A stretch of 64,000 nucleotides of DNA from the NCBI RefSeq assembly GCF_013167455.1, contig NZ_CP038328.1; one strand, written 5' to 3'. The DNA is from Escherichia coli O157:H7. GTDB lineage: Bacteria; Pseudomonadota; Gammaproteobacteria; Enterobacterales; Enterobacteriaceae. This document shows positions 18,313 to 21,300 of the stretch, one piece after another (position 1 is the stretch's first letter; each line of letters opens with the position of its first letter). A program made the position numbers.

Positions 18313-21300
18313 CTGGCAGAAACCACGTCCGGTAGTTACGCCGCCCCAGTGCAACTACCCGGAGGGCGTTTTCACACAGGTTATTGTCGATCTCCACCCA
18401 GCCATTGCGGCAGTATTCGTTCAGAGCGTCCCATTGCTTCAGCAGATAGGTGAACGCTTTCGCTGTATCCGAGTGGCGCGACAGCGTGTTCATCTGCCCC
18501 TGGAGCCACTCATACAACGACTGCATTAGCGGTACCGTTCTGGCTTTTCTGACCGCCAGTCGCTCTTCTGCCGGACTGCCGCGGATCTCAGCCTCGATAG
18601 CGTACAGTTCCCCGATACGACGGAGCGCTTCTCCCGTTACTGTCGTTGGATGGCGGACATGTACATCGTGGATCTTGCGTCGGGCATGTGCCATACAAGC
18701 CGCTTCGGTTGCCTGACCGCTTTCGTAAAGAGCATTGTAACCCGCATATGCATCGGCCTGCAGGATACCTCTGTAGTCCGCCAGATGTTGCTGTGGGTGG
18801 ATGCCTTTGCGGTCGGGAGAGTATGAGAACCACACCGCTGCCGGCATGGTCGAACCGGCGTTGCGATCGTCACGAACATAGACCCACAGCCGTCCGGTAC
18901 GGGTTTTACCCTGACCCGGCTCCAGTACATTTACCGGCGTGTCATCGGCATGCACTTTACCCGGCATCAGCACATAGTGCTTCAGTTCATCATACAGCGG
19001 GCGAAGCTGCTCTCCCATGATGTCAACCCAGCGCCCCATCGTATTGCGGTGCAGCTCCACGCCCTGGCGGGCATAGATTTCCGACTGACGGTACAGCGGC
19101 AGATGCTCGGCGAACTTAGCCATGATTATGCGGGCCAGCAGAGCCGGACTGGCGTAACTGCGCTCGATGGGTTTTGGTGGCTGCGGAGCCTGAACTATAC
19201 AGTCGCACCGGCTGCAGGCCCGTTTTGGGCGAACCGTTTCGATTACCCTGAACGCGGTGTTGATGATATCCAGTTGTTCAGAGATGCTTTCTCCCAGCGG
19301 TTTCAGTTTACCGCTGCAGACGGGGCATTCGGTTTCTGCCGGGGAGATAACCTGCCTGTCACGGGGAAGTGTTGCCGGAAGTGCTTTGCGGACGGGAGAG
19401 TCTGATGTTTTCGGCGCTGTCTCTCCGGCCATTGAGGTGAGTTGCAACTGCGCCTCACCAAGCCTGTTCTGGAGCTCGGTTATACGCGTTTCTGCCCGTG
19501 CGATCTTCTTTTCTATCTTCTCGCGGCTTTTCTCGCTGCTGCGACCGAACAACATTCTCTGCAGTTTAGCGACCAGCGCTCTGAGTGAGCTGATCTCGCG
19601 GGCATAGCCGGTTATTTCACCAGACAGACGGACGATAACAGCCTGCTGTGCGATCAGCAGGGCCTTCAGTTGCTCGATGTTGTCGGGGAGTGTGTTGTTC
19701 ATTCCCCTGTTTTATCACGGGTTATATCCGGATGCCAGGCCGTTCTGTCCGTTTGGGATGTTGCCATGCGATCCCCTCCAGTAGCATGGATAACTGAGCT
19801 GGCGTCAGGTGCACTTTCCCTTCCCGGGTTACCGGCCAGACGAAGCGGCCCCGTTCCAGGCGTTTGGCGAACAGGCATAACCCGTCACGATCGGCCCACA
19901 GTATTTTCACCATTTTGCCACTGCGGCCCCGGAAGACGAAGATATGCCCGGAGAACGGGGCATCTTTCAGCGTGTTCTGCACCTTCGAAGCCAGGCCGTT
20001 GAAGCCACAACGCATATCTGTGATGCCAGCGATGATCCAGATTCTGGTACCGGTTGGCAGCGTTATCATCGGGTACCTCCTTTCATTTCGCGGATTAGCG
20101 CCCGTAACATTTCCGGAGTGAGAGGGTCAAACAGTTTTACCACACCTGATTTAAGATGCAGCTCGCACCGTGGGACGTTTCCGGGATCACTCTCAGGGCA
20201 CTCATCAGGCTTGTTACGCCAGAAGGGATTTGTAACTGGTCTGGTCGGCTCTGGCGTATCAGTCAGAGCCACCGGGACAGGCATGCATTCCTGTATGTCA
20301 TCATCGCTCAGTAAGCCGTCCTCGTACTGGCTTTTCCATTTTAACAGCAGGTTATCATTGATACCGTGCTCTCTGGCGATCCGGGCAACAACAGCACCGG
20401 GCTGTAATGCCTGTTTTACCAGCCTGATTTTAAATTCACGACTGTAGGAGGTTCGTCGTTCTTTTCGCCATGTGCCTTCGCTGATTTGAGGCTCTGTTAA
20501 TTCCTTCTTTCTGTTGGCATAAAGGATGGCGTCAAGCTGAGCTAATGAAACTGAATCGGGCAATGGCCATGCGATACCGGATGCAATAAATCGCTGAAAA
20601 AGCGTATGTATTGTGGAATGACTGAGACCTAGACGCTGAGCGATGGCCCGGATGGTCAGTTTATCTTCAAATCTTAAACGCAGAGCATCAGGCAAATAAG
20701 AACGGAAGCAGGGAATATCTTTTTTTGTCTGGGAATTCATCGTTCGTGTCCATCTATATAGATGGGCGCGATTGTTGCCAGACAGGACAATTTTCACAAG
20801 ACGTCGCAGATGGGGCGCTTACACAACAATGGCGCGAGGGAAAGCTGCTATTACCTTCTTCAGAGAGCCCCCAGCTACTTCCTGTGACTCTCGATGCAGC
20901 TGCCGAACAGCCAGAATCGCTCGCAGAGGACCCGGAAACCCTCAGTATCAGCTGTTGTCAACGACGGATGACTATTGCACCGTTCGTGACAGTGTGCTGC
21001 AAGCGGATGCGTACGCCGGGTTCAACGAGCTGTATCGCAATGGTGGGATAACGGAAGCTGCCTGCTGGGCTCATGCCCGCCGAAAGATCCACGATGTGCA
21101 CGTCCGCATCCCGTCAGCACTGACGGAAGAAGCCCTGGAGCAGATCGGTCAGTTGTACGCCATAGAGGCGGATATAAGGGGAATGCCGGCAGAGCAGCGG
21201 CTTGCTGAACGTCAGCGAAAAACGAAACCGTTGTTGAAATCCCTGGAAAGCTGGTTGCGTGAAAAGATGAAGACCCTGTCGCGACACTTAGAGTTGGCGA

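Follow-up and report, generated by a model that had tools for sequence, protein, structure and literature searches.

Why does an IS66-family element in the chromosome of Escherichia coli O157:H7 encode a TnpA protein of about twice the usual length, and what might the additional part of the protein do? The question arises from a 64,000-nucleotide stretch of contig NZ_CP038328.1, here called the window, in which a first-pass annotation had noted a third IS66-family subtype with an unusually long first open reading frame (ORF) and had suggested a fused or extended regulatory protein. We conclude with high confidence that the region is a 3'-truncated copy of a known IS66-family insertion sequence (IS), probably of the ISSfl3/IS679 lineage, that carries its native long TnpA. 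The long TnpA is the native form of its subgroup and is ordinary there. Coordinates are positions in the window, and the element and all its features lie on the minus strand.

The element occupies 18332..20822, which places the bounds first proposed (18334-20821) within 2 nt of those obtained by blastn against a full-length plasmid copy (L003:1195-3903). That copy, on the O121:H19 plasmid NZ_CP022408.1, is 2,709 bp long and runs from GTAAGCG to CGCTTAC. The window copy aligns with its positions 1-2491 without gaps and at 99.1% identity, and stops 218 bp before its end; the right inverted repeat (IRR) is part of what is missing. Homology ends abruptly at 18332, where the shared GGCGTAACTAC is followed by CGGACG in the window and by ATGTTC in the full-length copy. 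The left terminal inverted repeat (IRL), GTAAGCGCCCCATCTGCGACGTCTTGTGAAAATT, at 20789..20822, was read from the sequence and from the IRL/IRR pairs of full-length relatives. It opens with GTAAGCG; 23 of its 34 positions, among them the first 8, agree with the right end of full-length copies. The window copy has lost the IRR, but relatives have it, as does the 99%-identical full-length copy. A target duplication of 8 bp is a hallmark of IS66 elements, and perfect 8-bp duplications flank long-TnpA relatives in Salmonella (L008/L009, GCCTGCTC) and in E. coli (L010, TTTTTATC).

Within these bounds tnpA, tnpB and tnpC stand in a row, as expected for IS66. The intact tnpB gene (19722..20069; 115 amino acids, aa) encodes the IS66 Orf2 domain (PF05717, E 2.5e-38; NF033819). 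Its ATG overlaps the tnpA TGA in the sequence ATGA (20069-20066), and AGGAGG is found 6 nt upstream of the tnpB ATG. A gap of 19 nt precedes the tnpC ATG (19702). The tnpC gene (18332..19702) encodes the DDE transposase, with a DDE_Tnp_IS66 domain (PF03050, E 1.7e-98, profile positions 1-275 of 284), a zinc finger (zf-IS66, PF13005) and a leucine zipper (LZ_Tnp_IS66, PF13007). It is cut after codon 457 of 518, and the C-terminal domain DDE_Tnp_IS66_C is absent. The frame continues into unrelated DNA as far as a stop at 18254, and RefSeq flags the gene as 'incomplete, missing C-terminus'. Both NF033819 and NF033517 score above their cut-offs for the TnpB/TnpC set. Because the right inverted repeat and the last 61 TnpC residues are gone, the window copy is unable to transpose; it is a dead, immobile element in which tnpA and tnpB are still intact.

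A separate observation concerns the positions at which the window copy departs from its 99%-identical plasmid counterpart. Of 23 mismatches, 12 crowd into 43 bp (20414-20456), corresponding to tnpA codons ~96-110. Such a cluster would fit a short patch of gene conversion from a related IS.

The length of TnpA depends on where the protein starts. A mechanical ORF call (20797..20066) gives 243 aa from a GTG, and the first ATG, at 20740, gives 224 aa; the first-pass annotation had recorded both lengths. The GTG falls inside the IRL and adds 19 codons before the ATG. In six relatives the frame 5' of the ATG contains stop codons, and homologues all start at the equivalent methionine, so the real product is the 224-aa protein. 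The gene (20066..20740) is intact and is annotated as such in RefSeq and in the record of strain Sakai (WP_001301939.1 / ECs_3846), and its product matches the NCBIfam model NF038385. The 19 spurious codons of the mechanical call are a reason to ask whether the long frame is itself an artefact, either a sequencing frameshift or an over-extended call that merges two normal-sized genes, and some database entries do consist of the N-terminal half alone, annotated as 'helix-turn-helix domain-containing protein' (P0042, H62). These entries are truncated or decayed copies, however. The 224-aa frame is unbroken in the 659 of 5,426 complete E. coli genomes in which tnpA is present at 80% coverage or more, on chromosomes and plasmids. 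Nor is it interrupted in homologues, which range down to 38% identity and derive from many different genera and sequencing projects. The extension is also under purifying selection: in informative pairs its ratio of nonsynonymous to synonymous substitutions (dN/dS) is 0.11-0.22, like that of the rest of the protein. A frameshift that would split the ORF was thus looked for and is not there, and we regard an artefactual origin as hardly credible. We also considered the E. coli hits that match the N-terminal half only (H62, H63) as possible stand-alone modules, and rejected them as truncated remnants or pseudogenes.

The 224-aa protein combines two helix-turn-helix (HTH) modules. Pfam residue numbers are given here for the 224-aa protein, that is, shifted by -19 from the 243-aa ORF. 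The N-terminal half, which had been described as HTH-like, matches HTH_23 at aa 23-56 (E 5.8e-9). The extra domain spans residues ~9-80 (20501..20716), and Pfam, AlphaFold2 and hhalign together describe it as a four-helix HTH domain with an invariant WPLP motif; the modelled helices are at residues 9-24, 30-37, 41-54 and 66-80. An HTH_Tnp_1 domain follows at residues 94-170 (20231..20461; PF01527, E 1e-24), a core common to the long TnpA, the short IS66 TnpAs and the OrfA proteins of the IS3 family. AlphaFold2 models the two as separate helical modules (predicted local distance difference test scores 80-89), the second being the three-helix HTH_Tnp_1, with a disordered linker between them. After HTH_Tnp_1 comes a variable linker, modelled as a long disordered stretch, and then a C-terminal beta-hairpin and helix at residues 191-221 (20078..20170). 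This last part was delimited from alignments and from the AlphaFold2 model; it carries the pattern CELHL..G..KL..PLTPE.LRALI.EMK, is conserved, and is found in short TnpAs too.

Comparison with the short TnpA of ISEc8, an IS66-family element that also occurs in the window, shows how the two forms are related. The 126-aa ISEc8 protein aligns over its full length with residues 92-220 of the long form (29% identity, E 7e-16), and the long TnpA is therefore a complete standard TnpA with an N-terminal extension of ~90 residues. The resemblance to TnpA that had been noticed at the C-terminal end is real, but it is not limited to that end. Curated NCBIfam models draw the same distinction. NF038385 is an equivalog for the long form ('IS66-like element accessory protein TnpA'); its 190 positions cover the extension too, and its cut-off is 150 bits. 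The window protein scores 280 bits against it (E 8e-84), with aa 12-205 aligned to model positions 1-189. The short-TnpA model NF047595 has 113 positions and matches aa 95-218 of the long TnpA. The ISEc8 protein passes NF047595 and covers only positions 82-189 of NF038385, below the cut-off. Weak matches of the long TnpA to NF006928 and NF033516 were also found. With 126 aa for ISEc8 TnpA, and models of 113 and 190 positions, the early estimate that the protein is roughly twice the usual length holds.

A protein search recovered two-HTH TnpAs of 200-227 aa, down to 38% identity, which align over their full length and share invariant residues in both halves. All those with a named source come from Enterobacterales, in the genera Escherichia, Shigella, Klebsiella, Citrobacter, Salmonella, Buttiauxella, Erwinia, Pantoea, Serratia, Enterobacter and Yersinia. 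In all seven loci that were fetched (39-99% identity) tnpB follows tnpA, and tnpC is next wherever the contig reaches. These data bear on the possibility that the protein is a recent local chimera, formed in the O157:H7 island by joining a fragment of an IS21-type transposase to an IS66 tnpA. The locus is heavily rearranged, being flanked by an ISEc8 remnant and by a deletion junction, and the N-terminal domain is homologous to the N-termini of the IS21-family transposase IstA, as described below; both points would suit such an event. Yet complete elements of 2.65-2.71 kb from other genera, carried on plasmids and chromosomes and bounded by both inverted repeats, contain the same architecture. 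Two of them have 8-bp duplications, and in the window the tnpA ATG follows the IRL at a distance of 82 bp, an interval free of foreign junctions. It follows that any fusion was ancient and ancestral to the subgroup, and a local origin is very improbable. An ancient capture of the domain is compatible with the explanation that we prefer, a native long TnpA. The proposal of a fused or extended protein can accordingly be kept in part: there is an N-terminal extension with an additional HTH, but it is no oddity of this locus, being the defining architecture of the NF038385 subgroup, which extends across at least 12 genera of Enterobacterales.

Another E. coli copy of the same IS, L017 (chromosome of E. 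coli TB06051), is decaying: tnpB and tnpC are frameshifted, and the dN/dS of tnpA relative to the window copy is ~0.6-0.8, which is consistent with relaxed selection after inactivation.

To place the extra domain, 1.84 billion representative proteins were searched with a profile made from the extension (A2); 5,518 of them matched at E <= 0.001. The best 150 of these comprise long TnpAs (28 proteins also match a TnpA-core profile), short fragments, and the N-termini of IS21-family transposases. One of the last, P0168 (504 aa), has rve and Mu-transposase C-terminal domains and scores 277 bits against NF033546 ('IS21 family transposase'). Its residues 4-88 match NF038385 positions 5-89 (E 3.8e-18), and hhalign aligns A2 with it at a probability of 98.8% (E 5.5e-17); the 62 aligned columns are 48% identical and take in the W-P-x-P motif. 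The profile and hhalign matches indicate that the extension is the same type of module as the N-terminus of a subgroup of IstA proteins. Judged from these alignments, it is a homologue of the DNA-binding domain at the N-terminus of IS21-family IstA. TnpA is no IS21 transposase for that reason: it covers only the first positions of NF033546, at 19 bits compared with at least 160, and has no rve domain. P0168 itself is tied to the IS5376 IstA structures only via its catalytic domain.

The same search also returned proteins of a different kind. In P0075, P0079, P0098, P0144 and others, all 600-820 aa long, the N-terminal HTH profile matches 7-12 stretches in tandem, and in P0144 there are repeated matches to the HTH_Tnp_1 core as well. 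Such proteins are multi-HTH repeat proteins.

The domain assignments lead to a working model of the element's gene products. The three genes would be expressed as one unit, given the ATGA overlap and the 19-nt gap; TnpC is, by its domain content, the DDE enzyme, and TnpA would be a DNA-binding accessory protein, a role proposed from domain homology only. All three IS679 genes are reportedly needed for transposition. The extra domain is likeliest to be a second DNA-binding module, a prediction from sequence, and the two HTH modules of TnpA could provide bipartite recognition of the element's own DNA, either at its ends or at a palindrome in the leader. We rate the chances that TnpA, with its two HTH modules, is a DNA-binding accessory that recognizes element DNA in this bipartite way as about even. 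The N-terminal HTH of IS21 IstA binds repeats in the IS ends. More tentatively, we hypothesize that the N-terminal module is an IstA-type end-recognition domain that was captured by the ancestor of this Enterobacterales IS66 subgroup, and that TnpA, and not TnpC alone, gives bipartite sequence-specific recognition; this is possible, though we would not favour it over its negation.

The leader palindrome offers another role for the extra domain. A perfect 16-bp palindrome, CCATCTATATAGATGG, was read directly from the sequence at 20750..20765, in the interval between the IRL and tnpA; 9 nt separate it from the tnpA ATG downstream. It may be an operator, or it may form an RNA hairpin that masks the ribosome-binding site. 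In a fold of the leader RNA the palindrome makes a hairpin, with an overall z-score of only -1.9. Its left arm resembles the tip of the IRL (GCGCCCCATCT versus GCGCCCATCT). In this alternative, which takes up the regulatory protein first suggested, the extra domain would make TnpA chiefly a transcriptional autorepressor of the IS that acts at the palindrome, and not a transposition factor that binds the ends. Relatives at 70% and 55% protein identity (L006 and L008) keep an inverted repeat at the same place with different arms. In the IS3 family, HTH_Tnp_1 proteins are known to act as repressors, the IS2 repressor TnpA being one example, whose model NF006928 the long TnpA matches weakly. On the other hand, a promoter scan of the leader found no sigma-70-like promoter, the Pantoea/Klebsiella and P0049 subgroups keep the domain but have no such palindrome, and the homologous IstA domain belongs to a transposase and binds repeats at the IS21 ends. 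We consider a mainly autorepressing TnpA unlikely, and continue to prefer a DNA-binding accessory protein with bipartite recognition.

Several observations weigh against parts of the interpretation given here. The palindrome is absent from distant long-TnpA subgroups (L010, L012), so it is not a universal target of the extra domain. Foldseek searches of the Protein Data Bank with models of the full-length protein and of its N-terminal domain returned generic HTH proteins, none at E <= 0.001, with the IstA structure 8b4h at rank 15 (E 0.38). A search of the N-terminal profile against the sequences of solved structures gave weak, generic HTH matches only, and over all structure-based searches the hits were to generic HTH regulators, sigma region 4 and ParB, none at E <= 0.001. 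Finally, the Sakai label 'ISSfl3 Family: IS66 partial' spans the tnpA-tnpB part only, and ISSfl3 and IS679 are candidate names for the element.

As to the genomic setting, many E. coli O157:H7 chromosomes contain the region at 100% identity, and in strains FORC_044 and Sakai the element sits just inside an island integrated at tRNA-Phe (pheV). This island, SpLE3 in Sakai, is the pathogenicity island SpLE3/OI-122 of E. coli O157:H7. The gene order in both strains is yqgA, tRNA-Phe, integrase, ISEc8 fragment, long-TnpA element, NERD/helicase pseudogene and PagC-like gene. Deeper in the island are espL2, nleB1, nleE and efa1/lifA fragments, together with ISEc8 and ISEc47 remnants.

On its left side the element abuts an ISEc8 remnant on the plus strand (20823..21655), which was delimited by blastn against an intact ISEc8 (L016) and with the Sakai annotation. 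The remnant consists of a 133-bp piece of tnpA (20823-20955), 36 bp without an ISEc8 match (20956-20991) and the 3' 664 bp of ISEc8 (20992-21655). Its orientation is opposite to that of the long-TnpA element, the IRL of which touches the tnpA piece. Since the IRL abuts an internally deleted ISEc8, the arrangement suggests that the long-TnpA element inserted into ISEc8 and that deletions followed. On the other side the truncated IS is fused to a truncated NERD-domain/helicase pseudogene on the plus strand (ECs_3849; 17497..18331; Pfam NERD and existing annotations), which is cut at the IS junction. One deletion probably took both the right end of the IS and the remainder of the NERD/helicase gene.

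Other parts of the window also belong to this island. Between ~6000 and 14000, a region of low guanine-plus-cytosine content (31-46%) corresponds to the type III secretion system effector genes espL2, nleB1 and nleE and an efa1/lifA fragment of SpLE3/OI-122. Two more IS66-family remnants, named from the Sakai annotation, lie back to back at ~300-4600: an ISEc47 remnant at ~300-2390 and an ISEc8 remnant at ~2480-4590, the tnpA of which is broken by an IS629/IS1203 copy at ~4590-5900. The designation of the long-TnpA element as a third subtype agrees with the Sakai record, which annotates ISEc8, ISEc47 and ISSfl3-like remnants in the island, and with tblastn, which distinguishes three tnpB/tnpC sets in the window.

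The corrected reading of the locus is thus of an IS remnant, truncated and immobile, that lies at a deletion junction in SpLE3/OI-122 and whose 224-aa TnpA is normal for its subgroup. As a discovery it carries little weight: the element and its three genes, long TnpA included, are already known from annotation in the O157:H7 Sakai record and RefSeq and from a curated NCBI family model. The IS21-type origin of the extra domain is only a modestly new point. No published statement of the link to IS21 was found in the literature searched, although it may stand in ISfinder or TnPedia, and in the literature on IS66 TnpA function and ISSfl3 nothing was found on the domain structure or mechanism of the protein. 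A domain shared with IstA is nonetheless a testable hint that the poorly understood IS66 TnpA takes part in DNA recognition. If the capture hypothesis is true, the subgroup would provide a handle on the role of TnpA in IS66 transposition and a case of DNA-binding-domain exchange between IS families.

Among known systems, the closest are ISSfl3 of Shigella flexneri and IS679 of the E. coli B171 plasmid pB171, which have the same tnpA-tnpB-tnpC layout and GTAAGCG ends. IS679 is a candidate name for this element type. Full-length relatives of the window element measure 2,709 bp, and IS679 is reportedly 2,704 bp long. A Shigella flexneri TnpA (P0004) also has 224 aa and is 92% identical to that of the window. 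The window copy differs from these elements in having no right inverted repeat and a TnpC cut at residue 457 of 518. ISEc8, in the same window, belongs to the same family and shares the tnpB and tnpC domains and the ATGA coupling of tnpA and tnpB, whereas its TnpA is without the ~90-aa N-terminal domain and its tnpC is only ~56% identical.

Outside the IS66 family, likeness is confined to single domains. The N-terminal HTH of IstA is homologous to TnpA residues ~14-76, including the W-P-(L/P)-P motif. In contrast to IstA, TnpA lacks both an rve/DDE catalytic domain and an IstB partner. As only the DNA-binding module is common to the two proteins, TnpA is not a member of the IS21 family. With the OrfA proteins of the IS3 family and the IS2 repressor TnpA, the long TnpA shares HTH_Tnp_1 (PF01527), which forms its central domain; it differs from IS3-family OrfA in that no programmed frameshift leads to a downstream DDE ORF and in that its C-terminal motif is specific to IS66.

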